Notes: a model not told the origin generated them from the sequence alone. A stretch of DNA of 38,698 nucleotides from Nitrospinota bacterium (GCA_016234205.1 JACRGN010000234.1:1-38698), one strand, 5' to 3'. Shown: positions 9,517 to 34,087, numbered from the stretch's first letter. A program made the numbers and translations.

Positions 9517-9578
9517 AGTGTCAGTGTCAGTGTCAGTTAAAGGAATTGTTTTTTTCTCACACTGACACTTACACTTAC
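9517..9578. repeat. Hexamer (gtcagt)n / (actgac)n hairpin
   Basis: agtgtcagtgtcagtgtcagt ... ctcacactgacacttacacttac. Confidence 0.8.
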
Positions 9579-9718
9579 GCTTTAAGTTTTTGTGCTATAT
9601 ACAACACTACTTGTATCAAAAGACACAAGAACTAATAATAGATATAACAAATAAGGTTATTTTTCGGTATTGTTTTTTGAATAGATGTTAATTATAATAA
9701 CCTATCATATTTAATGTA

Positions 9719-16143: not shown

Positions 16144-16155
16144 GCCTTGATAAAT

Positions 16156-17169
16156 ATGAACCGTTTAAAATTAATTATAATTTTTATTGCTATTATATTA
16201 TTTGGACTTGTAAATACAGAATCAGTAATATGGGCATCACAAGGTATTGACATTAAATATATTACATCATATTCTGCAAAGTCAATGGGCGGGGTTATAC
16301 CTTTAAAAATATATTTTGACCGTCAGCAGAATGAACTTTATATTGGCAGTCAAAGTAAGGAAATTGCTGTTATTAATGAGGATGGTATGATAGTTCACAG
16401 GATTCCACTTGCAGATTCCCCAAAATTACTCTGTGTAAATAAAAATGGCAATATTTACATATCTGATAATAAAGGGGGGATAAGTATTCTTAACTATCGG
16501 GGGGAGTATATAAAAAATCTTGACCTCTCGGCTGTGCCAGATAACACACTTTTAGCAATTCAATCATTTCATGTGGATGAGAATGAACATCTTTATATTG
16601 GTGATGGAAGACTAAGCAGAATTATCGTCCTCGATAGTTCAGGTAATTTTTTATATCAATTTGGTAAAAAGGGTAGTGGCGAGGGGGAATTCTTGAATGC
16701 AAAGGCAATAACTACCGATGCTGAGAGGCTATATCTTATTGACCCGCCACTATTCAGGGTATCAGTTTATGATAAAAAGGATGGTAGATTTCTTTATATG
16801 TTCGGACAGATATCGAGCCTTTTTGGAGGCTTCAGTATGCCATCAAGTATTGATACAGATGGAAAGAGGCTATTTGTTGTAGATACTAATAGGGCAATGG
16901 TAATAGTTTTCGACAGGGAGGGAAAGCCAATCATTGAATTTGGCGGGGTTGGCAGAAATCCTGACAGCCTCTCATGGCCCTCGGATATTAAAGTAGATGG
17001 GAATGGCAAGATCTATGTTTGCGATACAGGAAACGGAAGGATTCAGATATATGAACTTATAGATGTCCAGCAAATTGATGAAGTTAAACCACCAGAGACT
17101 GTTGAATCTGGCAAGGCGGCCGAGCCAATAGAGGTTGAGCCTGTTATTGAAAAAATAATTGTGAAGTGA
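16156..17169 (+). CDS. Exported NHL-repeat beta-propeller protein
   Basis: Signal peptide; FGKKGSGEGEF, FSMPSSIDTD, LSWPSDIKVDGNGKIYVCDTGNGRIQIY. Confidence 0.9.
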   Translation: MNRLKLIIIFIAIILFGLVNTESVIWASQGIDIKYITSYSAKSMGGVIPLKIYFDRQQNELYIGSQSKEIAVINEDGMIVHRIPLADSPKLLCVNKNGNIYISDNKGGISILNYRGEYIKNLDLSAVPDNTLLAIQSFHVDENEHLYIGDGRLSRIIVLDSSGNFLYQFGKKGSGEGEFLNAKAITTDAERLYLIDPPLFRVSVYDKKDGRFLYMFGQISSLFGGFSMPSSIDTDGKRLFVVDTNRAMVIVFDREGKPIIEFGGVGRNPDSLSWPSDIKVDGNGKIYVCDTGNGRIQIYELIDVQQIDEVKPPETVESGKAAEPIEVEPVIEKIIVK

Positions 17170-17175
17170 TTGTTT

Positions 17176-17191
17176 TGGCATATTCTTTGCT
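17176..17191 (+). promoter_or_regulatory. Internal sigma54 promoter between the two NHL genes
   Basis: TGGCATATTCTTTGCT (GG-N10-GC) within a 34-nt intergenic gap. Confidence 0.72.
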
Positions 17192-17203
17192 ATTATATTA
17201 TGC

Positions 17204-18082
17204 ATGATGAAAATGTCTCTCTTAATATTTGGAATTCTCATTATCCTTACATCTAAGGTAGAATCCACACCTTCAAATTTCTATTTTATCAGTGCCATTG
17301 AGAAATTCTCTGATGAGTATAGGTTTGAGGGGTTATCATCAATTTTTATTAATGATGAGGAACTTTATGTTGTAGATAATGGAGGAAACCACATATATAT
17401 TTTTAATCTGGATGGGTCATCTGTTTTTCAATTTGGAAAAGAGAAAGGGATTGCACTTCCCATTGATGTTTTTGTATACAACAATTATATGTATGTGAGT
17501 GCGGAAGGAAAGGATTTTATAGAGATTTTAAATATGAGGGGTGAAAAGATTGGAAAGATAGAACCTCCATACGAAGGGTTTACACCTGGTAAGATGGCAG
17601 CAATTGAAAGGGAAGGGTTCTTTGTTGTAGATAGAAAATCTCTCAATATATGTGTATTTGACAGGGATGGTAAATATCAATATAATTTTGGTGGAAGAAA
17701 TCTATTTAAATCAATTGCTGGTATTGCGGCGAAAAACGGGAAGATTTATGTATCGGTAATGAGCGCTGACCCTGTCGTAAGGGTATTTGATACCAAGGGT
17801 GAATACCTGACAGGTTTTGGACATATTGGTGAAAGCGATCAAAATTTCTCTATGCCATCAGGAATAAAAGTAGATGACAATGGAAATATATGGGTGGTGG
17901 ATGCCTTCAAGCACAGGGTTATTGGCTTTAATATAGAAGGTAAGAAGCAGAATGAATTTGGCATATCAGGAAATCCCAAAGAAGATCTTTATTATCCGCT
18001 AAGTATTGATTCAAAGGGGGACATATTTTATGTAATAGAAAAAGGACGGGGTAGAATAAGTATGTTCAGGAGGGTGGATTAA
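17204..18082 (+). CDS. Exported NHL-repeat beta-propeller protein
   Basis: Signal-like N-terminus; LYVVDNGGNHIYIF, FSMPSGIKVDDNGNIWVVDAFKHRV, LYYPLSID. Confidence 0.9.
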   Translation: MMKMSLLIFGILIILTSKVESTPSNFYFISAIEKFSDEYRFEGLSSIFINDEELYVVDNGGNHIYIFNLDGSSVFQFGKEKGIALPIDVFVYNNYMYVSAEGKDFIEILNMRGEKIGKIEPPYEGFTPGKMAAIEREGFFVVDRKSLNICVFDRDGKYQYNFGGRNLFKSIAGIAAKNGKIYVSVMSADPVVRVFDTKGEYLTGFGHIGESDQNFSMPSGIKVDDNGNIWVVDAFKHRVIGFNIEGKKQNEFGISGNPKEDLYYPLSIDSKGDIFYVIEKGRGRISMFRRVD

Positions 18083-18083
18083 A

Positions 18084-19250
18084 ATGAAGAAGACAGAAAC
18101 TTGCCCTGAGAGAAGCCGAAGGGACAGAAGACAGAAGACAGAAGTAAACGGTTTGAACGGTTTAATCTGTTTGCTTCTTGCTTCTTGCTTCTGTCTTCTG
18201 TCTTCTGTCTTCTCCTTTGCTGGAGATTATCACAAATCAGGTGTTCCCGCACAAACCACCCTTGCCTGTGCCCAGTGTCATGTTATACATGGAACACAGG
18301 GGAGCATATCTTTGATTTATACAGGAGCAACAAATACTTATGCAAAATTACTTAGGTCTGATTCAGTGGTTAATCTCTGCAAGTACTGTCATGACGGAGA
18401 CCCCTTTAATCTTGGAGCGCCAGATCTGTTTAGTCCTATTTATAATGCTGCTGCAGGTGATTTTAATACAGGTGGAACACCTGACGAAGATAAGCGGCAC
18501 AGTATCGGAGTTGATTTAGCAGGAGTAAGTCCGCCAGGTTATGCAGGGAGTGATTGGACAACAGCACAGACAAAATATGGCTCTGTTTTCAGTTGTATAT
18601 ATTGCCATGACCAGCATGGAAATAGTAATTATAGAAATTTTAGGCCCGAGCCGCTGAATCCCTCCTTCAGGGAACCTGGAGGTGACACATCAACGGATTC
18701 ATATAAGATAGTTACATATAATAACGGAGTTTGGGACAATTCATCTTCAATTGCACAGGCAATTAAAGATGGAAATGGTGATGGCAGTAATCCTGCCAAT
18801 CAGTTTTCCACCTCTAATATGACATTCAGAAGCAACACCAAACAGATAGCAGGTTTTTGTGGCAAATGTCATGTAAAGTTTTATAATTCTCTCGGATATG
18901 GCGGTGATGACAGTAGTTATGGTAATGGTAAGCTGGGTGGCAGTGCTGGTGGTGACAACGGAACAGGTACTCAGTGGGTGCGCCACCCGGTAGGCGGTAT
19001 TTCTGTTGGGGTTGGAAATGGTCATACTGACCCCGCAAATTTTGCATCAAATTTTACCGGCGCAAGCCGTGTTCGTGTCATAAATCCAGATGGACTTGAT
19101 AGTGGGAATGATGAACAGCCATTCTGTCTAACCTGTCACAGGTCGCATGGTTCTTCAAATCATTCTAATTTAATATTTGGGGCACCGACAACATTAGGGG
19201 GGGCTGGCACCATGATGAGAGATACATGCCAGCAGTGTCATAATCAGTAG
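18084..19250 (+). CDS. Second hexaheme cytochrome c, divergent OmcS-family paralogue
   Basis: SFA|GDYH; CAQCHVIH, CKYCH, CIYCHDQHG, FCGKCH, FCLTCHRSH, CQQCH; AGDF, KRH, PPG and RHP are colinear with 14844-16055. Confidence 0.82.
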   Translation: MKKTETCPERSRRDRRQKTEVNGLNGLICLLLASCFCLLSSVFSFAGDYHKSGVPAQTTLACAQCHVIHGTQGSISLIYTGATNTYAKLLRSDSVVNLCKYCHDGDPFNLGAPDLFSPIYNAAAGDFNTGGTPDEDKRHSIGVDLAGVSPPGYAGSDWTTAQTKYGSVFSCIYCHDQHGNSNYRNFRPEPLNPSFREPGGDTSTDSYKIVTYNNGVWDNSSSIAQAIKDGNGDGSNPANQFSTSNMTFRSNTKQIAGFCGKCHVKFYNSLGYGGDDSSYGNGKLGGSAGGDNGTGTQWVRHPVGGISVGVGNGHTDPANFASNFTGASRVRVINPDGLDSGNDEQPFCLTCHRSHGSSNHSNLIFGAPTTLGGAGTMMRDTCQQCHNQ

Positions 19251-19260
19251 GAGAAACAAT

Positions 19261-20853
<1,593 letters not shown>

Positions 20854-20879
20854 ATGTATAGGAAATTATAAAAAGCATA

Positions 20880-21050
20880 TAAGGAGAAAGGGAAAAGAAG
20901 ATGGAGAGATGGGGATAAAAAAACAAAAAAAGAATCAGGATACAGATGGACACGGATAACATAGGCTGAAAGCTGAAAGACTTTAACCTTTGAGCCTTGA
21001 GCTTTGAGTTATTATTTATTTCTGTTTCTCCCTTTCCTCCATTCTCCTTA
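20880..21050. repeat. Nested intergenic repeat cluster
   Basis: Outer arms aaggagaaagggaaa...gatggagagatgggga and ttctccctttcctccattctcctt enclose cagatggacacggat and ggctgaaagctgaaag / tttgagccttgagctttgag units. Confidence 0.7.
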
Positions 21051-21067
21051 ATCTTTTTCTTTTGTTC

Positions 21068-21916
21068 ATGACAGCGGTTCTAAAATTACTTCTTTTCGTT
21101 CATCTTGCCTTCTGCTTCTTGCCTCTTACCACTATTGTTTATGGGGAAGAAAAACTTGTAGTGAGCGAAGCAAATCTAAATGGGAAGGAATGCATACCTA
21201 TTGAATCAGATGAGATGCAGAGACGCTATGAAAATAAGCCCCTTCTATTTGATAATATGTTTATATTTGATATTCGTCCTCTTGCAGCGGCTGTGAAAGG
21301 AAAATCTATCCCATTTGTAAAGCAGACCAATATTGATATGTTTAGGGTGAAATACATACATAATATAGAGATGTGGAAAGGAAAGGATGTGTATCTTGTT
21401 GGCGAAGACACAGAATCAACTAAGAGTTTTTGTGAGGAGATGATTAAAAAAGACTACGGTGTGAATGATATTTATTATTTAAAAGGTGGGATTGATGCAT
21501 GGAATGGACCTATCAGGATGTCTTTCAAAGATGTGCGGTGTGAAGGTCTTGATTCGCGTGAAATAAAAAAACGGTTGGAAGCAGGGCAGGAGGTCCATAT
21601 TATAGACTGGCGGTATCCGGAGGATTTCTATAATGGCGGACATATCCCAGGCTCAATAAATGGATATGGAAAAGAAGGGGTTTTTGGAGGGATTGAAGAT
21701 ATGCTGCGGGGATATTTTAGATTCAGACCCATTTATATAAAATTAATCACTGATAATGCCGTTGCTGTATTTATAGATGATACGGAGTGGAAGGGTTTAC
21801 ATAGATGTCGGATTGAAAAGAGGGCGAGCGGTATAATGGATAAAATGTACTATTTAAAAGGCGGTATAGAGAAGTGGGAAGGACCACTGGAAAAGGAACC
21901 ATGGAAACAAGAATAA
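21068..21916 (+). CDS. Exported tandem rhodanese-like protein without the catalytic Cys
   Basis: Signal peptide; IFDIRP...YYLKGGIDAW; IIDWRYPEDFYNGGHIPGSIN...YYLKGGIEKW; active-loop positions read VGED and IDDT. Confidence 0.8.
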   Translation: MTAVLKLLLFVHLAFCFLPLTTIVYGEEKLVVSEANLNGKECIPIESDEMQRRYENKPLLFDNMFIFDIRPLAAAVKGKSIPFVKQTNIDMFRVKYIHNIEMWKGKDVYLVGEDTESTKSFCEEMIKKDYGVNDIYYLKGGIDAWNGPIRMSFKDVRCEGLDSREIKKRLEAGQEVHIIDWRYPEDFYNGGHIPGSINGYGKEGVFGGIEDMLRGYFRFRPIYIKLITDNAVAVFIDDTEWKGLHRCRIEKRASGIMDKMYYLKGGIEKWEGPLEKEPWKQE

Positions 21917-22653
21917 TAGAAGTTAGAAGTCCGAAGTCTGTCTTCTGTCTTCTGTCCTCTGTCCTCTGGTGTCTGATATTGGCCCCTATGTTAGTCAGTG
22001 CCGAGAGTGTGAGGAAGGAGGGATATCGCAATGATTATCTGCCAAACGGGATTGTTCCTAAGCACGAGATGGATACAGCTGAAAATTGGATTGCAATATT
22101 TGAACATCCTAAACGGGGAGAATGGCAGGAGCCGGATAAGGTAATTGAAAAGATGAACCTGAAAGAGGGTGATGTCGTTGCAGATATTGGAGCAGGGTCG
22201 GGTTATTTTACAAGACTGTTTGCCAGGGTTGTTGGGACAACAGGAAAGGCTTATGGGGTAGATATTGAGCCAGAGTTGGTTAAATACATGGAAGAAGATG
22301 CCCAAAGATTGAATTTGAGCAATTATATACCGAAGTTAGCCACAATGGCTGATTCCGGTCTTGAAACTAATAGTGTTGATGTGATCTTTATATGTCTCAC
22401 CTATCACCATCTTGAAGATAGAATCAATTATATGAATAAACTTAAAAAGGTTTTGAAAAAAGGTGGAAGGGTTATAATTGTCGCATTTTATAAAAAGAAG
22501 ATGGACTTTGGTCCCCCCCCTGATAATAAGATTTCGGAGGAAGTGACGATAGAAGAGATGAAAGAGGCTGGTTACCATCTTACCAGACGACTTGATTTTT
22601 TGCGATATCAATATTTTCTTGAATTTGAACCGAATGTAATTAACCACAGATGA
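21901..22653 (+). CDS. Class I SAM-dependent methyltransferase with signal-peptide-like N-terminus
   Basis: WQEPDKVI...VVADIGAGSGYFT...GVDIEP...SVDVIF...YHHL...LKKGGRVIIV. Start reset to ATG 21901 (SD aagga). Confidence 0.88.
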   Translation: METRIIEVRSPKSVFCLLSSVLWCLILAPMLVSAESVRKEGYRNDYLPNGIVPKHEMDTAENWIAIFEHPKRGEWQEPDKVIEKMNLKEGDVVADIGAGSGYFTRLFARVVGTTGKAYGVDIEPELVKYMEEDAQRLNLSNYIPKLATMADSGLETNSVDVIFICLTYHHLEDRINYMNKLKKVLKKGGRVIIVAFYKKKMDFGPPPDNKISEEVTIEEMKEAGYHLTRRLDFLRYQYFLEFEPNVINHR

Positions 22654-22671
22654 ACGCAGACTAAACAATAC

Positions 22672-24336
22672 ATGAAACCACAGATTAACACAGATTCACA
22701 CAGATTATTTAACAGGAAGGAGGAAGCAAGAATAAAGAGACAAGATGCAAGATACAAGAAGCAAGATTCTTTTCTTACTTCTGTCCCTTCGGCTTTGCTC
22801 AGGGCAGGCTTCTGTCTTCTGTCTTCTGTCTTCTTGCTTCTTACCTCTGAGTCTTATGCATCTGTGTGGCAGAAGCCTGAGCTTATAGATGCAGAGACAG
22901 GTGATGCATTCAGAACGAGCATTGCCTTTGACCCTTATGGGAATGCCATCGCCGTATTTGAACAATATACAGATGGAGTCTACAGGATATACGCAAATAG
23001 GTTTTTACCCGATAAAGGTGGGTGGCAGGGACCTGTCATTATTGATGCAGGACCAAGAAATGCCTATGAAGCAAGAGTTGCCTTCAGCTACAGTGGTGAT
23101 GCCATTACAATCTTCAAGCAGAGTGATGGAAATACTTATCGTATATATGCAAATCATTTTATCAGGAGTAAGGGATGGCAGGGACCTGTTGCAATAGATT
23201 CAGGGACAGGGGATGCAGATGGACATCAGATAACATTTGATGCTGATGGTAATGCTGCCGTTGTTTTTGAGCAGAAGTTAAAGGGTGTCTACAGAATCTT
23301 TGCTAATCAATACAGGAATAGAGAAGGTTGGCATGGTGCGGTGGCAGTTGATAAGGGTGAAAGCAATGGATATTTTCCCTATCCTGTCTTTGATTATCAG
23401 GGGAATATTTATGTGATTTATTATAAGGAGGAGGGGGGAGGGCTTGAGGTATACATAAGTAAGTATGAGGGGGGAAAAAAGATATGGAATGAACCCTTTC
23501 GTTTAACCGATAGTCATACTGTTGTTAAGCAGGAAGATTGGAATAAGAAGAGGAGTGATGTAAACAGAGGTATTAAAGGGATATATAATCCACTCTTTCT
23601 TTCTGAGATTAAAAAAAGGATTTATGCCGGGAGTTATACTTATAATTTAAAACGGTTTGAGACCCCTTCTAAGGTAGATTCAAGATTCAGGGATGCCTAC
23701 ACCCCTTCTCTGATAGTTAATAAAGGTGGAGAGATAATGGCATTTTTTGTAAGATGGGATGGAGAGTGTCAAAGGGGATATATGGCTGTATACAGGGATA
23801 ACGATGGGTGGAGTAAGCCGGAGATTATTGATGTAAAAGGAGGGGATGTTGAGCATATAAGGGCTGCAGTAAATTCCAAAGGTGAAATGGCAGTCGTATT
23901 TACACAGTGGGTGGATAACAAACAAGAGGCAAGAGGCAAGAGGCAAGAGGCAAGAAATAATGAAAATTTAAGGATACATGCAAGGCTATATTCCCCCTTA
24001 ATAAAAGGGGATGGTGGGTTGTTTGGCTGGGGGGAGGCTAAAATCATTGATGCAGGTAAGAAGGATGCTTACGGTCCCAATGTGATATATAATGGAGATG
24101 ATGAAATTATAGTAATCTGGTGTCAATGGGAAGTTGAGACCGTTAAAACTTATAGAAATGATTACAGAAAAGGAAGGGGTTGGGGTGAAGCTGTTAGAGT
24201 TGAAAAGGAGGCAGAGACCTGTGGTGGCTGTGGACTACGGATTGCAGCATCTCCCAATGGAATGCCCATAGCCATATTTGAGTTGAAAGCCTATGTTAAA
24301 GAAAGAACAAAAATATATGCCATAGGTGGGAAATAA
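22672..24336 (+). CDS. Exported repeat protein, probable beta-propeller
   Basis: About seven repeats of WxxPxxID.G.G.A....hAF...G.A.AVF.Q....YRIYAN.F; hydrophobic signal ending SYA. Confidence 0.72.
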   Translation: MKPQINTDSHRLFNRKEEARIKRQDARYKKQDSFLTSVPSALLRAGFCLLSSVFLLLTSESYASVWQKPELIDAETGDAFRTSIAFDPYGNAIAVFEQYTDGVYRIYANRFLPDKGGWQGPVIIDAGPRNAYEARVAFSYSGDAITIFKQSDGNTYRIYANHFIRSKGWQGPVAIDSGTGDADGHQITFDADGNAAVVFEQKLKGVYRIFANQYRNREGWHGAVAVDKGESNGYFPYPVFDYQGNIYVIYYKEEGGGLEVYISKYEGGKKIWNEPFRLTDSHTVVKQEDWNKKRSDVNRGIKGIYNPLFLSEIKKRIYAGSYTYNLKRFETPSKVDSRFRDAYTPSLIVNKGGEIMAFFVRWDGECQRGYMAVYRDNDGWSKPEIIDVKGGDVEHIRAAVNSKGEMAVVFTQWVDNKQEARGKRQEARNNENLRIHARLYSPLIKGDGGLFGWGEAKIIDAGKKDAYGPNVIYNGDDEIIVIWCQWEVETVKTYRNDYRKGRGWGEAVRVEKEAETCGGCGLRIAASPNGMPIAIFELKAYVKERTKIYAIGGK

Positions 24337-24400
24337 TAGTTTTAGAGTTGTAGTTTTAGAGTTGTTGATTTGGCTGAGGAGATTAAGTATAATTAAAAAC

Positions 24401-25258
24401 ATGATTAAACTGAAACAACCTATAAAAAATATTATGAGGCGAAAAGGGTTCATCTACGGTGGAGGGGGAGCATTATTTTTACTTCTCCTGATATTTATAT
24501 ATTACTTCTTTTTTGCTAAGGATGTTTTAAAAGACATGGTATTCATACCAGGTGGGGAGTTTATAATGGGGGTTGATATCCCAAAAAAGGAGCAGGGGAA
24601 AAGGGAGGAGGAATTAACAATAGATATTGATGAGACACCTGCACACAAGGTTTATGCAGATGGTTTCTATATAGATAAATACGAGGTTACAAACGTTCAA
24701 TATAAGAAATTCTTAAAGGCAACGGGCAGGAAAACCATCCTTATTGATCCGGTTGATAAGGAGGCTTCATACAACTGGAATGAGGATAACTACCCGGATG
24801 GACAGGGAAATAACCCTGTTGTTCTGGTGGATTTTGAAGATGCAAAGGCATATTGTGAATGGAAAGGGAAGAGACTCCCAACCGAAGAAGAATGGGAAAA
24901 GACATGTCGGGGAGATGCTGGAAAAAAGTGGAGCTTTGGGAATGAAGAGGTTTCCGGATATGCTAATACACGGGAGCTTAATTTGAAGTGGTCGGGCTCG
25001 GTCGGTTCTTTTCCGAAGGACCTCTCGCCCTATAAGGTATTTGATATGACGGGGAATGTTATGGAATGGACAGACTCACGATATTTGCCATATCCGGGCT
25101 CAGAAATGAAGGTAGGTTTTGGAGGGCTTGAAAAGGTAATTCGTGGAGGAGGATGGCTGGTAGATATTCAATCCTCTCGTTGCTCAAATCGCAATATTGC
25201 TCCCCCTACAAAAAGGCACAGGATGCTGGGTTTCAGATGTGCAAAGGATATACGGTGA
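24401..25258 (+). CDS. Membrane-anchored FGE-sulfatase (SUMF1)-domain protein
   Basis: MVFIPGGEFIMG, FYIDKYEVTN, RLPTEEEWEK, DMTGNVMEW, VIRGGGW, GFRCAK. Start uncertain (24401 or 24434). Confidence 0.88.
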   Translation: MIKLKQPIKNIMRRKGFIYGGGGALFLLLLIFIYYFFFAKDVLKDMVFIPGGEFIMGVDIPKKEQGKREEELTIDIDETPAHKVYADGFYIDKYEVTNVQYKKFLKATGRKTILIDPVDKEASYNWNEDNYPDGQGNNPVVLVDFEDAKAYCEWKGKRLPTEEEWEKTCRGDAGKKWSFGNEEVSGYANTRELNLKWSGSVGSFPKDLSPYKVFDMTGNVMEWTDSRYLPYPGSEMKVGFGGLEKVIRGGGWLVDIQSSRCSNRNIAPPTKRHRMLGFRCAKDIR

Positions 25259-25277
25259 GGAGCAAAAAACTGATTTT

Positions 25278-25479
25278 AACCACTGAGACACTGAGGCACA
25301 GAGGAAATTAAATCCGAAATTCGAAGCACGAAATTCGAAACAAATTGGAAACTCAAATGACAAAAATTCAAAACTCTATACTGTCCACCTGTTTTGGATA
25401 TTTGTATTTCAGTCATTTGATATTGTTTCGGATTTCGGATTTCGAATTTTATAATTAATCTCTGTGTCTCCGTGACTGG
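25278..25479. repeat. Nested inverted repeat element (9-mer cactgagg arms around a heptamer cgaaatt / tttcgga hairpin)
   Basis: ccactgagacactgaggcacagagg [aaatccgaaattcgaagcacgaaattcgaaacaa ... ttgtttcggatttcggatttcgaattt] ctctgtgtctccgtg. Confidence 0.85.
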
Positions 25480-25497
25480 CAAATTTTTATAATTTCA

Positions 25498-26334
25498 TTG
25501 AACATTAAGAGACTTTTTACCTTTGTTATCATTATTGCAGGAATAGGTCTTATATTATATGGCAGTGATGCCCTCCATATCAGGAACATACATCCAGAAA
25601 TAGATGGAATGATATATATACCTGAGGGTGAATTCACCATGGGGAGCAAGGGAAGGTTGGAGCATGGATATGACGGTGGCGATGGAAGAGTAGGTCTGGA
25701 GGTTGGAGTTGATGAGATCCCCTTACATAGTATTCAGGTAAATGGATTCTATATGGATAAATATGAGGTCACCAATGCCCAGTATAAGAGATTCATAGAT
25801 GCAACAGGACATGAGGCGCCAGTAGATAGTGTGGCATCAGATGCCCCATATAACTGGAGAAATGGTAATTATCCTGAAGGTGAGGATAACAATCCTGTAA
25901 TTAATGTTACATGGTATGATGCAGATGCCTACTGCCGATGGGCAGGAAAAAGGCTTCCTGTAGAGATGGAATGGGAGAAGTCCTGTCGGGGTTCTGATGG
26001 AAGGAGATGGAGTTTTGGAAATAATTTTATCTCTTCATTTGTTAATACCCATGAACTTGATCTTAAATGGTCGCAGGCGGTTGGCTCATTCCCTGAAGAC
26101 CGATCCCCTTACGGTATCTATGACATGTCAGGGAATGTGAGCGAATGGTCAGGCTCATGGTATAACCCCTATCCCGGCTCTTCACTCAAAAGAGATGCCT
26201 TTGGAGAGAAGAACAGAGTAATACGAGGGGGTTCGTGGTTGGCAGATAATCTTACCGCAAGATGTACAAAGAGGAATTTCGCTATACCTGAAAAAAAGCA
26301 CAGGACGATAGGATTCAGATGCGCAAAGGATTAA
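25498..26334 (+). CDS. FGE-sulfatase (SUMF1)-domain protein
   Basis: N-terminal TM/signal; MIYIPEGEFTMG, YEVTN, RLPVEMEWEK, DMSGNVSEW, VIRGGSW, GFRCAKD; clear paralogue of the preceding gene; TTG start. Confidence 0.88.
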   Translation: MNIKRLFTFVIIIAGIGLILYGSDALHIRNIHPEIDGMIYIPEGEFTMGSKGRLEHGYDGGDGRVGLEVGVDEIPLHSIQVNGFYMDKYEVTNAQYKRFIDATGHEAPVDSVASDAPYNWRNGNYPEGEDNNPVINVTWYDADAYCRWAGKRLPVEMEWEKSCRGSDGRRWSFGNNFISSFVNTHELDLKWSQAVGSFPEDRSPYGIYDMSGNVSEWSGSWYNPYPGSSLKRDAFGEKNRVIRGGSWLADNLTARCTKRNFAIPEKKHRTIGFRCAKD

Positions 26335-26352
26335 GATAAAAAATTTTGAATT

Positions 26353-27987
26353 ATGAATTATGAATTAAGGAAATTGGTTTATATTTTATTTTTTGTAATT
26401 CTCCTTATGGGTTGTCAATCTGAAAATAAGACAGTAGAAGGTAATAGGGAGAAAGAACAGGAAAAAGAGATAGAGCGTTTAAAGGGATTGCTCAGGAATG
26501 ACCCCACAAGGTGGGAGGATCGCCATAAATTGGGTATCGAATATATGACCGCGGGAAAAAATGAAGAGGCAGTTCAAGAATTTTTAGGAGTGATGTCCAT
26601 AAAGCCTGATAATATTGATAATCTACAATCTCTGGGCATGGTATATTATAAAATGGGGAAAAAGCATATGGCACACTTTTACTGGCGCACTGCCCTTGAG
26701 ATAGAGCCGGAAAACAAATTTATATGGGACCTGATAAGAAAGATTGTAAAGGAAAAGGGTGTGGGGGATGACTCCATGGATATAGAAAAATGGGCACAAC
26801 ATTACAAAAATGCTCAGAAGTTATATAAAGAAAGGGATTATGAAAAAGCAGCTTCAGAGTTTGAGCTTGCGGCAAAATCTAATCCATCCGATTCCAGAAC
26901 CTATTTTTCCATAGGTGCAGCATATAAGGCAATGGATAAGATAGATGAGGCAATATCAGCATGGCAGAATGCACTTAAGTTTAAACCGGATGACCTCATG
27001 ATTATGAAATTAATATCACTCGCAAAGGAGAAGAAGGAGAGAGATACTGCAATGGTTAAAGCACAGGAGGCAGTAAAAAAAGATTCCAAGGATTGGAAGG
27101 CACATTCCCGTCTTGCCTCTTTGTATCTGCATGATAAACATGGGAGATTTATAGACGAGGCAGAGGCAGAATATAAAGAGACGGTTCGTCTCAATCCACA
27201 GGATCCAGGTGCGTATAAACAGCTCGCAGAGATAAATTTTTACAAAGGACGTTATGGAGAGGGTATCGGGTATCTTGAGAGGGCATCAAAATATTTATCA
27301 AAGGACGATGTAATACGCAAAAGGATTAAAGACATGAAACTATACCAGAAGCTCTATCAAAAAGGACAGGAGACGTGGAATAAGGGGGGGATTGAAAAAT
27401 ATGATGAAATGGTCTTTGTGCCTGATAGGTTCTTTATAGATAAATACGAGGTAACTAACGTTCAGTATAAGAGATTTCTTGATAAAAACCCTAACCTTAC
27501 TCTGCCGCCCCATTGGAAGAAAGGGGTATATGAGGAGAGGAAGGATAACTATCCAGTCGTAAATGTCGATTGGTATATGGCAGCTCTTTATTGTAAATCT
27601 ATGGATAAACGGCTTCCGACCGAAGAGGAATGGGAGAAGGGAGCCCGTGGGGATAAGGGATTTGATTACCCATGGGGAAATATATTCAGGAATGAAATTG
27701 TAAACAGTGAGGAGGCAGGTTTTGGGAGATTGACCCCGGTTGGTAGTTTTGAAGATGGTAAAAGCCCTTACGGAATTTATGATATGGCTGGGAATGTAAA
27801 GGAGTGGACAGATAGTGAATATAAAGATGGAAATAAGCAATCCCCATTCCACGGAGAGGGGTATAAAATAATACGGGGTGGATCTTTCAAGTCAGGAATG
27901 GAAGAAGTTAAAGCAACAAAGAGGGGATATGCCCCCCCTGTATATACAGACATTGATGTTGGTTTCAGATGTGTAAAGATAAAATAA
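26353..27987 (+). CDS. Lipoprotein with TPR repeats and C-terminal FGE-sulfatase domain
   Basis: Lipobox LLMG|C; multiple TPRs; FIDKYEVTN, RLPTEEEWEKGARG, DMAGNVKEW, IIRGGSF, GFRC. Confidence 0.88.
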   Translation: MNYELRKLVYILFFVILLMGCQSENKTVEGNREKEQEKEIERLKGLLRNDPTRWEDRHKLGIEYMTAGKNEEAVQEFLGVMSIKPDNIDNLQSLGMVYYKMGKKHMAHFYWRTALEIEPENKFIWDLIRKIVKEKGVGDDSMDIEKWAQHYKNAQKLYKERDYEKAASEFELAAKSNPSDSRTYFSIGAAYKAMDKIDEAISAWQNALKFKPDDLMIMKLISLAKEKKERDTAMVKAQEAVKKDSKDWKAHSRLASLYLHDKHGRFIDEAEAEYKETVRLNPQDPGAYKQLAEINFYKGRYGEGIGYLERASKYLSKDDVIRKRIKDMKLYQKLYQKGQETWNKGGIEKYDEMVFVPDRFFIDKYEVTNVQYKRFLDKNPNLTLPPHWKKGVYEERKDNYPVVNVDWYMAALYCKSMDKRLPTEEEWEKGARGDKGFDYPWGNIFRNEIVNSEEAGFGRLTPVGSFEDGKSPYGIYDMAGNVKEWTDSEYKDGNKQSPFHGEGYKIIRGGSFKSGMEEVKATKRGYAPPVYTDIDVGFRCVKIK

Positions 27988-27993
27988 TAAAGA

Positions 27994-28063
27994 AGTGTCA
28001 GTGAATAGTGTCAGTGTCAGTAAAAAAATCATTGCACTGACACTAACACTCACACTGACACTG
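27994..28063. repeat. Hexamer (gtcagt)n / (actgac)n hairpin
   Basis: agtgtcagtgaatagtgtcagtgtcagtaaaa ... actgacactaacactcacactgacact. Confidence 0.8.
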
Positions 28064-28089
28064 TGGTTTAAGAAAGGAGGTATTCTTAA

Positions 28090-28572
28090 ATGAAGGCAAT
28101 AATATTTTTAATCTCATTCATATCTCTCCTCGGGATTAAGAATGGAGAACTTGCTGCGGCAGGGGGGGAGGTTAAATGTGAAGAGATAGCTCAAAATAAA
28201 CTCCTTCAAATGATGGAGAAAGAAAAGGGGAAAGTCGTTATTGTCGATTATAGAACACCTGAGGATTATTATAATAAAGGGCATATCTCTGATGCCATCC
28301 TCTTTTCACCAAAGGATAAGGATTTCTTACAGCAGAGGCTGGATTACCTTGCGCTGCAATGGAAAAGAAATAGTAAGGCCGCTGTTATCGTGGATAATGA
28401 CGGGAGAGAGGCTAACATCTTTTGCAGGAATATGAAGATGTCAATGAAGTATGAACATATATATAGCCTTAAAGATGGTATGAAGCTCTGGACATTGCCG
28501 CTTGAAAAAGGGAAAATGCCAGTCCCTGGAACAAAAGAAAAAACTAAAGAGAAAGGAGGAAAAGGAAAATAA
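28090..28572 (+). CDS. Exported single-domain rhodanese-like protein without the catalytic Cys
   Basis: SD aaggagg; IVDYRTPEDYYNKGHISDAI...VIVDNDG...YSLKDGMKLW. Confidence 0.8.
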   Translation: MKAIIFLISFISLLGIKNGELAAAGGEVKCEEIAQNKLLQMMEKEKGKVVIVDYRTPEDYYNKGHISDAILFSPKDKDFLQQRLDYLALQWKRNSKAAVIVDNDGREANIFCRNMKMSMKYEHIYSLKDGMKLWTLPLEKGKMPVPGTKEKTKEKGGKGK

Positions 28573-28578
28573 ATAATT

Positions 28579-29067
28579 ATGAAAACAAAGTGGGTTTATA
28601 TTTTACTGTCTATTATCCTCCTTTCAGTTTTAGCTCTACCCCTCCTAACCTCCTCTTACAGAGTGGAGGTATCAGCAGGGGAAGATGTTCCCAAGAACCC
28701 TGACTATGTCTTTGCAGTCTGTCAGGATGTAGCGGATGGGAATACCATAGAAGTTGATATCCTCGGCATGAAGAGAAAACTCAGATTAATTGGTGTAGAT
28801 GTTGGCAGAAAGGGGTTCTTTGAGGGGATAAAAAAAATGTTTGGCATGGGGGCTGCGTCATACTTAGAAAAAACCGTAAAAGGGAAGAAGCTCTACCTTG
28901 AATTTGAAGATAACTGGGCTGATCCATCGGGTATTTTACGCGGCTATGTGCATCTTAAAGAAGGTGATACTTTTATAAATCTTGAGATGATAAAGCTGGG
29001 ATATGCATCAGTTGATAGGAAGAGTAACTATAAATATAAAAAGGAATTTGAGAAGGTAGGGAGATGA
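28579..29067 (+). CDS. Membrane-anchored thermonuclease (SNase)-like protein, probably inactive
   Basis: VADGNTIEV, KLRLIGVD, DPSGILRGYV, FINLEMIKLGYA. Confidence 0.75.
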   Translation: MKTKWVYILLSIILLSVLALPLLTSSYRVEVSAGEDVPKNPDYVFAVCQDVADGNTIEVDILGMKRKLRLIGVDVGRKGFFEGIKKMFGMGAASYLEKTVKGKKLYLEFEDNWADPSGILRGYVHLKEGDTFINLEMIKLGYASVDRKSNYKYKKEFEKVGR

Positions 29068-31268
29068 GGTTTCTTGCTTCTTGCTTCTTGCTTCTTGTCT
29101 CAGGTACCTGTGCCGCTGAATCCTTCTCTGAGCCGATTATACAGGATGGGCATAAAAAGGTTATTCGTTCCTTATCCTTTTCCCCTGATGGTAATATTAT
29201 TGCCTCCGGAGGGCTTGATAGAACTATTAAATTATGGGATGCCCATGACGTGTCCCTTTTAAAGACCTTTTCTGGTCATACGGGTTCTGTTAATTCAATT
29301 GCCATCTCCCCGGATGGCAGATTACTTGCGTCATGTAGCGATGATAGCACCATAAGGCTCTGGGACATTAAGAAGAGAAGCAGTGTCGCTTCACTATCGG
29401 GTCACAAAGGATCTGTCTTTTCTGTTGCCTTTTCTCCTGACGGCAGATTGCTTGCTTCAGGGGGTGATGATAAAACTGTAAGGCTCTGGGACATTGAGAA
29501 GAGAAGTAGTGTCGCTGCACTATCGGGTCACAATGGATCCGTCTTTTCTGTTGCCTTCTCGCCGGGAGGGGATATTCTTATCTCTGCAAGTGGCGACGCT
29601 ACTATCGGGATATGGGATGTTCACCCCGTTAGAAGTCTGCATGCAAAGGATAGCGAAATAACCATACAGTTAAATGACTCTGATAATGGGACTTCTAACG
29701 AGGTGAAAAAGAGAACCCCACAATTTCTTACAGGGCACAGTGGTGCAGTCCATACGGTTACATTTTCTCCAGATGGAAGACTCCTTGCATCAGGAGGTGA
29801 TGACGAAACCATAAAATTATGGGACATTAAGAATATGAAAATAGTTGAAACCCTCTTTGAGCATCATGAGAGCGGCTTTCACCCCATCTATAACCTCCGA
29901 TTTTCATCGGATGGTGAGATTCTGGCAACGGCTGGTGCCTATCCCAATGTCCATTTATGGGACATAAAGAAAAAGATGGTCATAAAGATGCTTTACGATA
30001 ATTCCCACGCAGTTTATTCTGTGGACTTTTCGCCAAAAGAGAGGATTGCGGTCTCGGGGGGATGGGATACAACTATCAAGCTCTGGGATATCACCACAGG
30101 AACAAAGACTCATACTTTTGAAAACCGCATCAGACAGCTATATCTGCAATCTTTTACCAGGGATGGAAGAGTATTGACTATCGGGAGTTGGGATAAGGCA
30201 ATTAAAATCTGGGATGTTTCAAGAAGCCAGAAGCCAGAAGCCAGAAGCCAGAAAATAGAAAATAGTTTATTACAAAATTTCTTTGAAAAACAGGATGGGC
30301 TTATTGAATCTGTAGCACTATCTGAGGATAACCGGATGCTCGCAGCGGGATACAGGGATAACACAGTAAAGATATGGGATTTTGAAAACTTGTCCCTGCA
30401 AGGTTTAAGCAGGGAGAGAACCCCTCTTGCAGTCTTTAAGGGGCATGAGAATTGGCCTATATGTATAGAGTTTTCACCAGGAGGAAGTGTAGTGGCATCG
30501 GGTGGGCTGGATAGGACAGTGAGGCTCTGGGATATTCGCCAGAAAGCCCCTATTGCAACCCTTAGAGGGCATAATGAGCCGATTAAGTCACTTAACTTTT
30601 CTCTTGACGGGAACATTCTTATCTCAACAGGATGGGGTGGAGAAATGCTCGCATGGGATATAAATCTGCAATCCCCTGTTGATACTTTTAAAGGGTATAA
30701 TGGCATGACACATCTCGCCAGATTTTCCCCTGATGGTAATCATGTGGCAATCGTAACAAAGGAGAATACGGTTTTACTTCTCAGTATAGATGGAAAATCA
30801 ATAATCCCCCTCACCCCCCCTTTAGAAAAGGGGGGTATGGGGGGATTTTCAAGCGGAAAGGCGACTATAAATACTATTGCCTTCTCTCCTGACGGGCATC
30901 TCCTTGCTATCGGCGATGGAGCAAATATGGTGAGTCTATGGAGGTTTTCAGCATTCCGCCTTGAGCTTTCAGCTTCATTTGAAGGGCATACTGATTCTGT
31001 TTATGAGGTAGCCTTTTCTACCGATGGAAAGAGGTTGGTATCAGGCAGTGAAGACCATAGTATAAAGGTGTGGGATATAGAAAAGGGAATACCACTCATG
31101 ACCCTTCTGGCTATAGAGAGGGATGATTTTTTAGTCTGTCAGCAGGATAATAATTATATAGCATCTGAAGGCGCAAAAAAGTATGTAAAAAACAGTGAAA
31201 GTGTAAGTGACAGTGTCAGTAAAAACAAAAATGCTTATACTTACACTGACACTGACACTAATCACTGA
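29064..31268 (+). CDS. Exported WD40-repeat protein (roughly two 7-bladed propellers)
   Basis: Repeated GH...V.SVAFSPDG..LASG..D.T.RLWD; signal-like N-terminus; ATGA overlap with the SNase-like gene. Confidence 0.92.
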   Translation: MRFLASCFLLLVSGTCAAESFSEPIIQDGHKKVIRSLSFSPDGNIIASGGLDRTIKLWDAHDVSLLKTFSGHTGSVNSIAISPDGRLLASCSDDSTIRLWDIKKRSSVASLSGHKGSVFSVAFSPDGRLLASGGDDKTVRLWDIEKRSSVAALSGHNGSVFSVAFSPGGDILISASGDATIGIWDVHPVRSLHAKDSEITIQLNDSDNGTSNEVKKRTPQFLTGHSGAVHTVTFSPDGRLLASGGDDETIKLWDIKNMKIVETLFEHHESGFHPIYNLRFSSDGEILATAGAYPNVHLWDIKKKMVIKMLYDNSHAVYSVDFSPKERIAVSGGWDTTIKLWDITTGTKTHTFENRIRQLYLQSFTRDGRVLTIGSWDKAIKIWDVSRSQKPEARSQKIENSLLQNFFEKQDGLIESVALSEDNRMLAAGYRDNTVKIWDFENLSLQGLSRERTPLAVFKGHENWPICIEFSPGGSVVASGGLDRTVRLWDIRQKAPIATLRGHNEPIKSLNFSLDGNILISTGWGGEMLAWDINLQSPVDTFKGYNGMTHLARFSPDGNHVAIVTKENTVLLLSIDGKSIIPLTPPLEKGGMGGFSSGKATINTIAFSPDGHLLAIGDGANMVSLWRFSAFRLELSASFEGHTDSVYEVAFSTDGKRLVSGSEDHSIKVWDIEKGIPLMTLLAIERDDFLVCQQDNNYIASEGAKKYVKNSESVSDSVSKNKNAYTYTDTDTNH
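29620..29707. mobile_element. MITE-like element with 18-bp terminal inverted repeats inserted in frame in the WD40 gene
   Basis: ttcaccccgttagaagtc ... gacttctaacgaggtgaa (one mismatch); adds 28 aa between WDV and KKR, whereas sister repeats read WDIKKR. Confidence 0.75.
30803..30848. repeat. GC-rich REP-like palindrome in frame in the WD40 gene (IPLTPPLEKGGMGGF)
   Basis: aatccccc-tca-ccccccc-tttagaaaa-gggggg-tat-ggggggatt; relatives at 3113-3153, 23991-24022 and 37513-37545. Confidence 0.75.
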
Positions 31269-31273
31269 CACTA
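31192..31273. repeat. Hexamer hairpin forming the 3' end of the WD40 gene
   Basis: agtgaaagtgtaagtgacagtgtcagtaaaaacaaaaat...acttacactgacactgacact translates as SESVSDSVSKNKNAYTYTDTDTNH; near-identical left arm at 32498. Confidence 0.8.
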
Positions 31274-31276
31274 ATT

Positions 31277-32494
31277 ATGCCATCTTTTAAATATAAGGCT
31301 ACAGATATTACTGGAATGGTTATTGAAGGGGTTATGGAAGCAAAGGAGGAAAGGTCTGTCATAACCATACTTCAAAATCGCGGGTATATCCCTATAAATG
31401 TTGCCCCCCCCGATGTTAAAAAAAAGGGTAGAGAAAACCCCTGGCGGCTTCTCTTACAACGTGTTCCACAGCAACAGGTCATAAATTTTACCAGGGAGCT
31501 GGCAGGTTTGTTAAAGGCAGGTATTCCTATTGATAGAAGTATTAAGACGCTTATTGGTATTGTAGAAAAGAAGAGATTTAAAAAGGTGCTTGAAAATATC
31601 TTAAGTTCCATTGAGAAGGGGAGTTCTGTTGCCGAGGCACTGGAAGATTTTCCAACAGTGTTTCCACCCTTTTATGTCAACTTAGTACGGGCTGGAGAGG
31701 CAAGCGCTACCCTTGATGCGACCCTCAGGAGGTTAAGTGATTTTCTTTCAAGGTCTAAGGAGCTCAGAAACTATATCATATCTGCTATGATATATCCTGC
31801 TATTCTTACAATCTTCAGTGGATTCTCTATAATCATCCTGTTAACCTTCGTTATACCAAAATTTGCGGAGACATTCTCAGAGATAGGACAGGCAATCCCC
31901 CTATCAACAACAATTCTAATGAGGGTAAGCGGGACTGTTAGAAATTACTGGTGGGTATTTATCCTCTCCCTGCTTGGTCCCTACCTGCTCTTTTACAGTT
32001 ATAAGAGAACAGATGACGGAAGGCTTGTCTGGGATCAACTCAAGCTTAAGATGCCTGTTGTTGGGACAATTATCAGAAATACAGAGGTTGTAAGATTCTC
32101 CAGGGCAATGGGGACCCTTCTTAAAGGCGGGGTTCCAGTTTTAAAATGTATTGATATTGTCAGTAATACCATTACCAACCGTTCTATTGCAAAGGCTATC
32201 ACGAGACTCTATGAGAGTGTGAGACATGGTGAGGGGCTTGGGCTGCCATTAAAGAAGGAGGCAATATTTCCACTTATGGCAGTTGAGATGATTATCGTGG
32301 GTGAAGAGACAGGGCGATTGGATGAGATGCTTCTTGAGGTGGCAGATACATTTGAAAGCCATCTGAGGGAAAATGCAAAGAGATTTCTATCTATCATGGA
32401 GCCGGCATTAATAATCTTCATGGGGGTGGTTGTAGGTTTTATCGTTGTATCCATGCTGCTTGCTATCTTCAGTATAAACGAGATACCATTTTAA
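31277..32494 (+). CDS. gspF: Type II secretion inner-membrane platform protein F
   Basis: FTRELAGLLKAGIP, AGEAS, SAMIYPAIL, FVIPKF, VGEETGRLDEML, MEPALI. Confidence 0.93.
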   Translation: MPSFKYKATDITGMVIEGVMEAKEERSVITILQNRGYIPINVAPPDVKKKGRENPWRLLLQRVPQQQVINFTRELAGLLKAGIPIDRSIKTLIGIVEKKRFKKVLENILSSIEKGSSVAEALEDFPTVFPPFYVNLVRAGEASATLDATLRRLSDFLSRSKELRNYIISAMIYPAILTIFSGFSIIILLTFVIPKFAETFSEIGQAIPLSTTILMRVSGTVRNYWWVFILSLLGPYLLFYSYKRTDDGRLVWDQLKLKMPVVGTIIRNTEVVRFSRAMGTLLKGGVPVLKCIDIVSNTITNRSIAKAITRLYESVRHGEGLGLPLKKEAIFPLMAVEMIIVGEETGRLDEMLLEVADTFESHLRENAKRFLSIMEPALIIFMGVVVGFIVVSMLLAIFSINEIPF

Positions 32495-32568
32495 AAAAGT
32501 GTAAGTGTAAGTGACAGTGTCAGTAAAAACAAAAATACTTACACTTACACTTACACTTTTTTGGGGAG

Positions 32569-33021
32569 ATGTTTATGAAATGGGGGCTTTTTAAAATCAA
32601 AAATAATGAGAGGGGTTTTACCCTTATAGAGCTGTTGATAGTGCTTATAATCCTTGGACTACTCGCTGCACTGGTCGCGCCGAGGTTCTTTGGTCATGTG
32701 GGGAGATCTAAGCTTAAGGCGGCAAAGATGCAGATAGAACTCTTTGGCACCGCTCTGGATGCGATGCGTCTGGATATAGGACGATACCCTACAACCGATG
32801 AGGGTCTGGCATTGACACGGTCAAGTCCGGGGTCTGTGGAGGGGTGGAGGGGTCCATATATACCCAAGAATATACCACTTGACCCATGGAGAAGACCCTA
32901 TGTATATCTCTCTCCAGGCGAACATGGAGAATATGAAATTATATCCTATGGTGCTGATGGTGCGGCTGGTGGCACAGGAGAGGATCAAGATATCGTCAAC
33001 TGGAAAGACATTGAGGAGTAG
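32569..33021 (+). CDS. gspG: Type II secretion major pseudopilin G
   Basis: NERG|FTLIELL; ALDAMRLDIGRYPTTDEGL; WRGPY; DPWRRPYVY; ISYGADG. Confidence 0.95.
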   Translation: MFMKWGLFKIKNNERGFTLIELLIVLIILGLLAALVAPRFFGHVGRSKLKAAKMQIELFGTALDAMRLDIGRYPTTDEGLALTRSSPGSVEGWRGPYIPKNIPLDPWRRPYVYLSPGEHGEYEIISYGADGAAGGTGEDQDIVNWKDIEE

Positions 33022-33544
33022 AAATCTTCAATCTTCAATCTTCAATCTTCAATCTATTGACGGGTTCACTATGGTGGAACTCCTGGTGGTTCTGTTCCTC
33101 ATCGGACTGATGCTTTCTATTGCTGTTCCCTCCTTTATACATACCGTAGAAACTCTTAAATTCAAGGCAACTGCCCGTAAGATAGTCTCAACACTTAGAT
33201 ATGCCAGAAATACCGCAGTATTTAAGCAGATGTCCCAGGCTGTTGGTTTTGATATAGATAATAATCTCTACTACCTGGAGGGGCATGGGATTGAGGGGGA
33301 TGAAGACCCTCTCTCAAGGAGTATAAAAACCTTTACGCTCCCTTCAGATGTCTCTATTAAGTCTCTGGAGATGGTTAAAGAGAGGATTGAATCAGGAAAA
33401 GGTAATATCCTGTTTTATCCTGACGGGAGTTCCAGCAGCGGCACAATCATAGTGAGAAATAAGAGGACAGATGAGGGATTCAGAATTGAGGTAGATATTT
33501 TTACCGGTCTCACACAGGTAACATTTTATAGTTTCAGTGAATAG
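33011..33544 (+). CDS. gspH: Minor pseudopilin H (GspH/FimT-like)
   Basis: DG|FTMVELL; LRYARNTAV; ILFYPDGSSSSGTI. Most plausible start is in-frame TTG 33011 overlapping the end of gspG. Confidence 0.85.
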   Translation: MRSRNLQSSIFNLQSIDGFTMVELLVVLFLIGLMLSIAVPSFIHTVETLKFKATARKIVSTLRYARNTAVFKQMSQAVGFDIDNNLYYLEGHGIEGDEDPLSRSIKTFTLPSDVSIKSLEMVKERIESGKGNILFYPDGSSSSGTIIVRNKRTDEGFRIEVDIFTGLTQVTFYSFSE

Positions 33545-34003: not shown

Positions 34004-34087
34004 GAACAAAAAATCAAAGTGTCAGTGTCAGTTTTTAGTGTCAGTGCTTTTTTACTGACACTGACACTATTCACTAACACTTATTAT

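Follow-up and report, generated by a model that had tools for sequence, protein, structure and literature searches.

The window, by which we mean the whole 38,698-nt stretch of DNA analysed here, is one contig (C125) of the draft genome G000 of a Nitrospinota bacterium from groundwater (2.79 Mb in 387 contigs, 39% G+C). Five of its genes, at 18084, 19261, 21901, 22672 and 29064, open with tandem heptanucleotide (period-7) arrays, and the translated arrays have the appearance of signal peptides of exported proteins. The unit CAGAAGA occurs 22 times in the window (7.2 ± 2.4 expected) and GCAAGAA 16 times (7.3 ± 2.4 expected), and for neither did any of 100 shuffles reach as high a count. A preliminary description of this DNA had placed heptamer repeats at the starts of these five genes; tandem heptamers are indeed present there, and the translations that it quoted are correct on retranslation. 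A sixth gene at 21068, listed as a weak case, proved instead to have an ordinary signal peptide with a single complement of GCAAGAA and no array. The repeat-bearing 5′ regions are laid out as follows, with ↓ for the predicted cleavage site and the copy number after each unit:

18084–18221, plus strand: signal-peptide coding region of a multihaem c-type cytochrome, MKKTETCPERSRRDRRQKTEVNGLNGLICLLLASCFCLLSSVFSFA↓GDYHKSG
18123–18144, plus strand: purine arm (GACAGAA)3.1 of gene 18084, coding DRRQKTE in the putative basic amino-terminal (n-) region
18171–18213, plus strand: pyrimidine arrays (TTGCTTC)3.1 and (CTTCTGT)3.7 of gene 18084, coding the putative hydrophobic (h-) region LLLASCFCLLSSVF
19261–19404, plus strand: signal-peptide coding region of an LpoB/GNA1162-like protein, MPEDRRQKTEDRRQKTEARSKKSVLCSLSSVLLFLVSCFFLLSTFAQA↓EERKD
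19265–19326, plus strand: purine arrays (CAGAAGA)6.9 and (AGAAGCA)2.7 of gene 19261
19327–19379, plus strand: pyrimidine arrays (TCTGTCC)4.4 and (TCTTGTT)3.6 of gene 19261
21901–22002, plus strand: signal-peptide coding region of an exported-type S-adenosylmethionine methyltransferase, METRIIEVRSPKSVFCLLSSVLWCLILAPMLVSA↓ESV
21937–21968, plus strand: pyrimidine array (TCTGTCC-like)4.6 of gene 21901
22672–22860, plus strand: long signal-peptide region of gene 22672, whose product has no Pfam family
22679–22707, plus strand: 10-mer array of gene 22672, translated as KPQINTDSHRLF at the start of the gene
22726–22767, plus strand: imperfect purine heptamers of gene 22672
about 22785–22806, plus strand: small repeat element of gene 22672, coding VPSALLRAG
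22809–22834, plus strand: pyrimidine array (CTTCTGT)3.7 of gene 22672, coding FCLLSSVF ahead of SYA↓SVWQK
29064–29117, plus strand: signal-peptide coding region of a WD40 protein, MRFLASCFLLLVSGTCAA↓ES
29071–29097, plus strand: array (TTCTTGC)3.9 of gene 29064

Because a unit of seven is not a multiple of three, an array of at least 21 nt is read in all three phases and gives the same cyclic seven-residue peptide in any frame. (TCTTCTG)n encodes SSVFCLL in every frame, its complement encodes QKTEDRR in every frame, and there is no stop codon in any frame on either strand. Pyrimidine-rich units in general (TCTTCTG, TTCTTGC, TTACTGC, TCTTGCA and others) are stop-free and spell strings of Leu, Phe, Ser, Cys and Val; their complements spell Lys, Arg, Glu, Asp and Gln strings with a net positive charge. 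A hairpin made of a purine arm followed by a pyrimidine arm is its own reverse complement. The cytochrome gene combines both arms. Its putative start codon stands immediately after the stop of the upstream gene and has GGAGG upstream, and its product matches the Pfam families Paired_CXXCH_1 and Cytochrome_C7. As the preliminary description had said, the protein has no other hydrophobic stretch ahead of its first CXXCH.

Heptamer arrays are a property of the whole genome. Exact arrays of at least three copies number 193, 29 and 21 at periods 7, 6 and 8, and arrays of at least 18 nt number 323, 165 and 38, respectively. The heptamer arrays reach a density of about 116 per Mb and comprise 100 distinct canonical units. 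The pattern (CTTCTGT)3 is matched in all eight genomes of the family (f1), with 9–73 matches each, and in one of 112 other genomes of the class; a reversed-pattern control for it is uninformative, the reverse being a rotation of the same repeat. Four period-7 arrays also occur in the 14.6 kb sampled at the LpoB-like locus of G018, a genome of another family, so repeat formation is not confined to f1.

Position within genes depends on what an array encodes. Genes were taken from crude in-house open reading frame (ORF) calls (2847 ORFs, 87% coding), which place 251 of the 323 period-7 arrays inside ORFs and the remaining 72 in intergenic DNA. Of the 251 genic arrays, 124 fall within the first 70 codons, a region with only 24.6% of all codons (p = 3 × 10−17), and so do 58 of the 64 arrays that code a hydrophobic in-frame peptide (p = 7 × 10−29); past codon 70 there are 64 hydrophilic arrays and only six hydrophobic ones. 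Where a gene carries both kinds near its start, the hydrophilic, purine-rich array comes first in 19 of 19 cases, at median codon 10 as against 25. An independent measure agrees: a lag-7 identity of at least 0.6 is found in 45 of 728 signal-like h-regions, compared with 0–7 for any other lag, and in none of 489 internal control segments.

A hydrophobic-coding array lies at the N-terminus of 46 genes, and 39 of these combine a basic n-region, the array as the only hydrophobic stretch and an AXA-type or lipobox site. Scored with an in-house heuristic, all 39 have a predicted cleavage site or lipobox, at a median of 8 residues past the array. The n-region has a net charge of at least +1 in every case (median +4) and a median length of 22 residues, and every h-region contains a 9-residue uncharged window with a mean Kyte-Doolittle value of at least 1.7 that is coded by the pyrimidine array. 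A lipobox regular expression matches 14 of the 39, in three or four cases inside the repeat itself; in LptE and FlgH, which are lipoproteins in other bacteria, the lipobox directly follows the repeat. The putative start codons (34 ATG, three TTG and two GTG) are conserved in relatives, and a Shine-Dalgarno-like motif is present in 27 of the 39 genes compared with 1238 of 2791 genes overall. Pfam families were found for 33 of the products, and by our own classification 26 of these are envelope or periplasmic proteins: two multihaem cytochromes c, two SurA-like chaperones, PBP4, CcmH, TolB, LptE, two secretins, FlgA, FlgH, two FlgT, a DegP-like protease, a TolC-like protein, a multicopper oxidase, FimV and others. 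The remaining seven are ambiguous (TPR, FGE-sulfatase, NHL, WD40, methyltransferase), and no classic cytoplasmic enzyme family is among the 33. What the preliminary description saw in the window is thus a pattern of the whole genome.

The same data bear on the possibility that the arrays are 5′-untranslated or intergenic DNA through which open frames happen to run, with the true starts downstream. The units are stop-free (234 of the 251 genic arrays on the sense strand), so ORFs extend through them easily, and downstream starts, which the preliminary description had named as evidence against itself, are indeed what is found in seven of the 46 cases (C106, C111, C130, C141, C2, C208 and C313:12601, one of which precedes ribosomal protein L14). 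In these cases the arrays, at codon positions −1 to 50, precede a ribosome-binding site and start that are conserved, and the ORF calls ran through them; the purine arm of the cytochrome gene in the related genome G006 is likewise outside the coding sequence. The other 39 genes, however, have no downstream hydrophobic stretch or usable start, yet c-type cytochromes, lipoproteins and secretins need a signal. In addition, the Shine-Dalgarno-like starts upstream of the arrays are conserved between species, and length changes in these arrays stay in frame, unlike those of intergenic arrays (see below). An annotation artefact is therefore largely refuted, and we regard it as extremely improbable for the set as a whole.

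Frame behaviour was examined against G002, the closest genome, whose mature proteins are 92–100% identical (1.15 Mb of about 3.1 Mb compared). For those array clusters that could be located in G002 (80 of 239), we measured how far apart their conserved 150-nt flanks lie. Among N-terminal clusters, 12 are unchanged, 14 are shifted by a multiple of three and two are shifted otherwise; the corresponding counts are 8, 2 and 6 for intergenic clusters and 19, 13 and 3 for internal coding clusters. N-terminal and intergenic clusters differ in frame-keeping (Fisher p = 0.005), and 14 of 16 exceeds the expected one third (p = 1 × 10−5). Since N-terminal length changes keep the frame (14 of 16, compared with two of eight intergenic changes), the arrays are translated. 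Within the 39-gene set nine of ten length changes are in frame, and the exception (−7) accompanies a shifted start codon. Only three of the 14 in-frame N-terminal changes are of ±21 nt; most consist of replacement of a whole stretch by other units, as in gene 22672, where G002 has other units in place of ∼22719–22816, for a net −39 nt that leaves the frame intact. Turnover is rapid: the array stretch is <70% identical in 15 of 28 N-terminal clusters, and the flanks are about 96% identical.

Non-triplet repeats in leaders invite comparison with contingency loci, in which slipped-strand mispairing would switch envelope genes on and off and the coding of an h-region would merely permit the repeat. 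The closest precedent is the opa family of Neisseria, outer-membrane protein genes in which frame shifts at a CTCTT repeat of the leader region turn expression on and off (PMC3960869; bioRxiv 10.1101/2020.09.16.300947). The architecture is shared, both being pyrimidine-rich, non-triplet, stop-free repeats translated in the signal-peptide region; moreover, adding or removing a single heptamer alters the frame, and the arrays change fast between species. As those accounts describe it, opa has one unit, one gene family, long arrays and on/off switching at about 10−3 per generation. Here, in contrast, there are 100 units in short arrays (mostly 2.6–5 units), frequently with a paired purine n-region arm, in at least 39 envelope genes that are unrelated and for the most part housekeeping. 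The targets (TolB, LptE, SurA, DegP-like, CcmH and c-type cytochromes) are hardly dispensable and are not variable surface structures. No frameshifted ‘off’ allele was seen in assembled sequence among the 46 N-terminal cases, and inspection of the 72 intergenic arrays turned up no convincing frameshifted exported gene beside them. The fixed length differences from G002 also weigh against a switch, being in frame in 14 of 16 cases and rarely of ±21 nt, with wholesale unit replacement between species. We therefore judge phase variation to be a very unlikely explanation.

Orthologues indicate where the repeat-encoded leaders came from. Relatives retain the cleavage site and the mature N-terminus in each of the five gene families that were compared. 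For the cytochrome, the LpoB-like protein, TolB and the methyltransferase, members of family f1 keep both features and differ by species in their repeat units; ordinary signal peptides are found outside f1 for these four families and outside the G000/G002 pair for the WD40 protein. The mature start GDYHKS of the cytochrome is invariant in six of six orthologues, and the leader before it is built from CAGAAGA with TTGCTTC and CTTCTGT in G000, CAGAAGA with CTCATTG and TTACTGC in G001, GCAGTAT with TTACTGC in G003, and CTCATTA and CTCATTG in G006, where the arms are separated by a ribosome-binding site and ATG. The cytochrome orthologue in G018 has an ordinary leader. The same holds for 22 of 25 homologues at greater distance, of which the remaining three are partial or masked, and no period-7 array is present in 94 kb covering the loci of 24 distant homologues (L018–L041). 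The LpoB-like protein shows the same pattern, with the AQA↓E site kept in G000, G001 and G002 and VQA in G003 and G006. Its orthologue in G018 (L011, C7, about 13000–13250) has an ordinary h-region and an n-region of CCGCAGCA-like repeats. TolB has seven family orthologues, all with different leaders followed by a conserved FA↓DT[SP]D[VI]Y, and 13 outgroup orthologues with ordinary leaders that are conserved inside their own families. Methyltransferase homologues from three further families of the class have signal peptides of the ordinary or the lipoprotein type. The WD40 orthologues of G001, G003 and G006 have ordinary signals and a similar mature start, ELIIQDGHKKV (ELIIKDGHKKV in G006). 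The G006 orthologues of TolB (L160, C78) and of the WD40 protein (L198, C57) each have one in-frame TAA inside the match.

As relatives outside the repeat-bearing lineage already have signal peptides in all five families, the repeats replaced existing signals and did not create new ones. The preliminary description had allowed for both replacement and creation, and its first alternative is the one that holds; creation of export signals on cytoplasmic proteins was rejected for all five families, including the odd-looking methyltransferase and WD40 protein. Its assignment of the pyrimidine arm to the h-region ahead of a cleavage-like site gains comparative support from the conserved cleavage sites. 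So does its assignment of the purine arm to a basic n-region, except that gene 29064 has no purine arm in its coding sequence. Sequence comparison thus supports reading the pyrimidine arm as the h-region, and the purine one as the n-region, of what appear to be real signal peptides, in which repeat DNA has taken the place of earlier signals.

We consider it probable that the heptamer arrays of this lineage overwrote older signals, and that a pyrimidine array now serves as the h-region in no fewer than 39 genes, of which five lie in the window. In the process that we envisage, the lineage would generate tandem heptanucleotide arrays at a high rate, perhaps by slippage or template switching. Arrays that arise at, or spread to, the 5′ end of an exported-protein gene would be tolerated there, because a basic start, a hydrophobic core and a cleavage site with small residues are all that a signal peptide requires, and would overwrite the older signal. 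In the resulting Sec or lipoprotein signal peptide the pyrimidine array would act as h-region, and the purine array would often form a long n-region; the proteins would then be exported and the leaders cleaved off. Arrays would turn over quickly between species by the swapping of whole stretches, possibly neutrally, with only in-frame variants surviving. Repeat formation would in this way be filtered by what each orientation encodes, and signal peptides would be the one place where the hydrophobic orientation is both tolerated and functional. Where the arms are complementary, they may also fold into a hairpin in the mRNA (and in single-stranded DNA), which we take to be a by-product and not the selected function.

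The hairpins themselves could nevertheless be the selected object, as intercistronic mRNA stabilisers, processing sites or translational brakes in a long operon, with the peptide constrained only not to harm export. The purine arm of the cytochrome gene (18123–18144) is predicted to pair perfectly with 18188–18213 in a 25-bp stem (z = −7.45), and gene 19261 also has a very stable predicted 5′ hairpin (z = −3.4); the genes of the window follow one another head to tail on a single strand, and their stops and starts overlap. Across the genome, the 5′ 180 nt of the 39 genes have a median folding energy of −50.1 kcal/mol compared with −37.4 and −38.1 kcal/mol for two control sets (p = 2 × 10−5 and 9 × 10−6), a comparison made on raw energies and not on z-scores. 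Complementary array pairs with arms of at least 18 nt each are purine-first in 15 cases and pyrimidine-first in none, and 12 of the pairs are N-terminal. However, such pairs number only 17 genome-wide, and in many genes the two arms are unrelated units (e.g., GACAGAA with TTACTGC in C110), which argues that the hairpin is frequent but not essential. For roughly a third of the 39 genes the folding energy lies in the range of the controls, and the claim in the preliminary description that the repeats fold the mRNA 5′ end into a hairpin, strong for 18084 and 19261, is weak for 21901 (z = −1.8), 22672 (z = −2.1) and 29064 (z = −1.7). Finally, orthologues preserve the cleavage site and hydrophobicity and not the pairing. 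On balance a selected nucleic-acid hairpin seems to us unlikely.

Several points weigh against the replacement of signal peptides by translated repeats as the whole account. The ORF calls are crude, as the seven untranslated arrays illustrate; the signal-peptide heuristic is lax, scoring 859 of 2847 ORFs as signal-like; and the coverage of the frame test in G002 is limited. Signal peptides whose n-regions span 20–45 residues and include acidic ones are unusual (median length 45 vs 32). Special selection of n-region arrays for positive charge was considered and rejected, with +1.17 per heptad compared with +1.04 for internal arrays (p = 0.57); the charge of purine arrays is therefore not specific to n-regions, which speaks against fine adaptation. 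The start between the arms of the G006 cytochrome means that the purine arm need not be translated, and the greater average structure of repeat-signal 5′ regions makes a selected RNA role possible.

A more speculative extension would treat the heptamer hairpin as a self-propagating signal-peptide cassette. Because such a hairpin is self-reverse-complementary and its arms are frame-independent, a copy landing at a 5′ end on either strand would code ‘basic then hydrophobic’. The unit swaps seen between near-identical genomes would then be gene conversion or template switching between leaders of different genes, the RNA stem would be a shared regulatory or targeting handle of these secretory mRNAs, and the cassette could give export to proteins that had been cytoplasmic. 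We think this quite unlikely.

Repeat-encoded leaders resemble several known systems in part. Of the longer simple repeats, heptamers form the commonest class in many bacteria and are mainly intergenic there, according to two reports (PMC4692102, PMC4679880). The heptanucleotide repeats described there (cyanobacterial, the GGGAATC type of Xanthomonas and Nostoc, and TAACTGA of Beggiatoaceae) are likewise period-7-dominant, lineage-specific, fast-varying and sometimes arranged as inverted pairs. Regulatory or G-quadruplex roles have been proposed for them, and TAACTGA stops in all frames, whereas the arrays described here lie mostly in ORFs and are sorted by coding. Tandem repeats inside ORFs normally have units divisible by three, as stated in a paper on Borg repeats (PMC9879509), which are also fast-evolving and frame-keeping and are enriched in extracellular or signal-peptide-bearing proteins. 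According to that paper all Borg ORF units have lengths that are multiples of three and give rise to disordered regions; here a unit has 7 nt, net length alone preserves the frame, and one orientation appears to build a hydrophobic targeting segment. PARCEL and Rickettsia palindromic elements are similar in being dyad-symmetric DNA that is translated in proteins and acceptable on either strand (PMC2996958). Elements of the PARCEL type are presented in that paper as defined sequence families of at least 75 nt that spread by mobility or horizontal transfer; the heptamer sites, by contrast, share no conserved element, and their arms are often non-complementary. No mobility gene turned up with the arrays, though no search aimed at one was made. 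We found no description of heptamer-encoded signal peptides in the full-text literature, a coverage that leaves subscription journals outside.

Beside opa-type coding repeats, the system stands out for its scale, its housekeeping targets and the speed of its turnover. Dozens of essential envelope proteins are apparently exported with microsatellite-written leaders that are rewritten between sister species. The lineage may thus represent an experiment of nature, on the scale of a genome, that shows with how little sequence information a bacterial signal peptide can do, and suggests that non-triplet repeats can persist in coding DNA without being switches. It also suggests that the mutation pressure of repeat formation, filtered by orientation-specific coding, can remodel a whole class of protein segments. 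In practical terms, the leaders are prone to mis-annotation, with starts called too far downstream or upstream, and the arrays break short-read assemblies exactly at the 5′ ends of secreted-protein genes. The leaders would also provide a ready set of minimal, periodic signal peptides for probing Sec and Lol recognition.

Three further heptamer arrays of the window lie outside the five leaders:

23923–23955, plus strand: internal purine array (CAAGAGG)4.7 in gene 22672, a hydrophilic insert KQEARGKRQEARN (KQEARGK…)
30222–30265, plus strand: internal purine arrays (AGAAGCC)4.6 and (AGAAAAT)2.3 in the WD40 gene, coding the hydrophilic insert SQKPEARSQKIE (SQKPEARSQK…)
33023–33055, plus strand: array (AATCTTC)4.7 in the extended leader of a prepilin-like protein (gene 32879–33544), coding NLQSSIFNLQS upstream of G↓FTMVELLVV

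The first of these is one of the class of 64 hydrophilic arrays past codon 70. In prepilin- or pseudopilin-like proteins (G↓FT.[VLI]E), arrays lengthen the leaders to 30–60 residues, and besides the window gene this is seen at C132:1641–2558 and C259:2082–2516 of G000. The array-lengthened prepilin leaders suggest that any leader that gets cleaved off is a permissive site for arrays.

Other small repeats accompany the heptamers. A second element, which reads TCPERSRRD on one strand and VPSALLRAG on the other, stands beside heptamers in several leader regions, including window positions 18100–18122 and about 22785–22806 and sites on contigs C33 and C123 of G000. Ten-base tandem units (CGCAGATTAA and CACAGATTAA) are found at 3607–3681 and 22679–22707 of the window, the first forming an inverted pair. 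Tandem hexamers of the AGTGTC/GACACT type form intergenic hairpins at 9517–9582, 27994–28063, 32497–32558 and 34018–34068; intergenic arrays make up 78 of the 165 period-6 arrays of the genome, and the ACACTG family has 46 arrays genome-wide. These intergenic hairpins may be terminators or repetitive extragenic palindrome (REP)-like elements. An Rfam search of the window returned no family at gathering score.

The five repeat-leader genes belong to a long same-strand run of predicted exported-protein genes (16147–32494), which includes two NHL-repeat proteins, the cytochrome, the LpoB-like protein, the methyltransferase, three paralogues with FGE-sulfatase domains (24326, 25498 and 26353) and the WD40 protein. 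This run is probably one operon, since stops and starts overlap.

The stretch was also recovered as assembled contigs in four groundwater DNA runs of one study, two of which carry G002-like alleles; among the sequencing runs listed as containing it, none is an RNA run. These contigs end at arrays, and depth spikes there: in one run the summed contig depth rises from ∼20 to 2000–4700 in array bins (19043–19423, 23615–23995, 25139–25519 and 28949–29300). Because contig depth jumps at the array bins, the same units appear to be abundant over many loci or organisms of the groundwater community.

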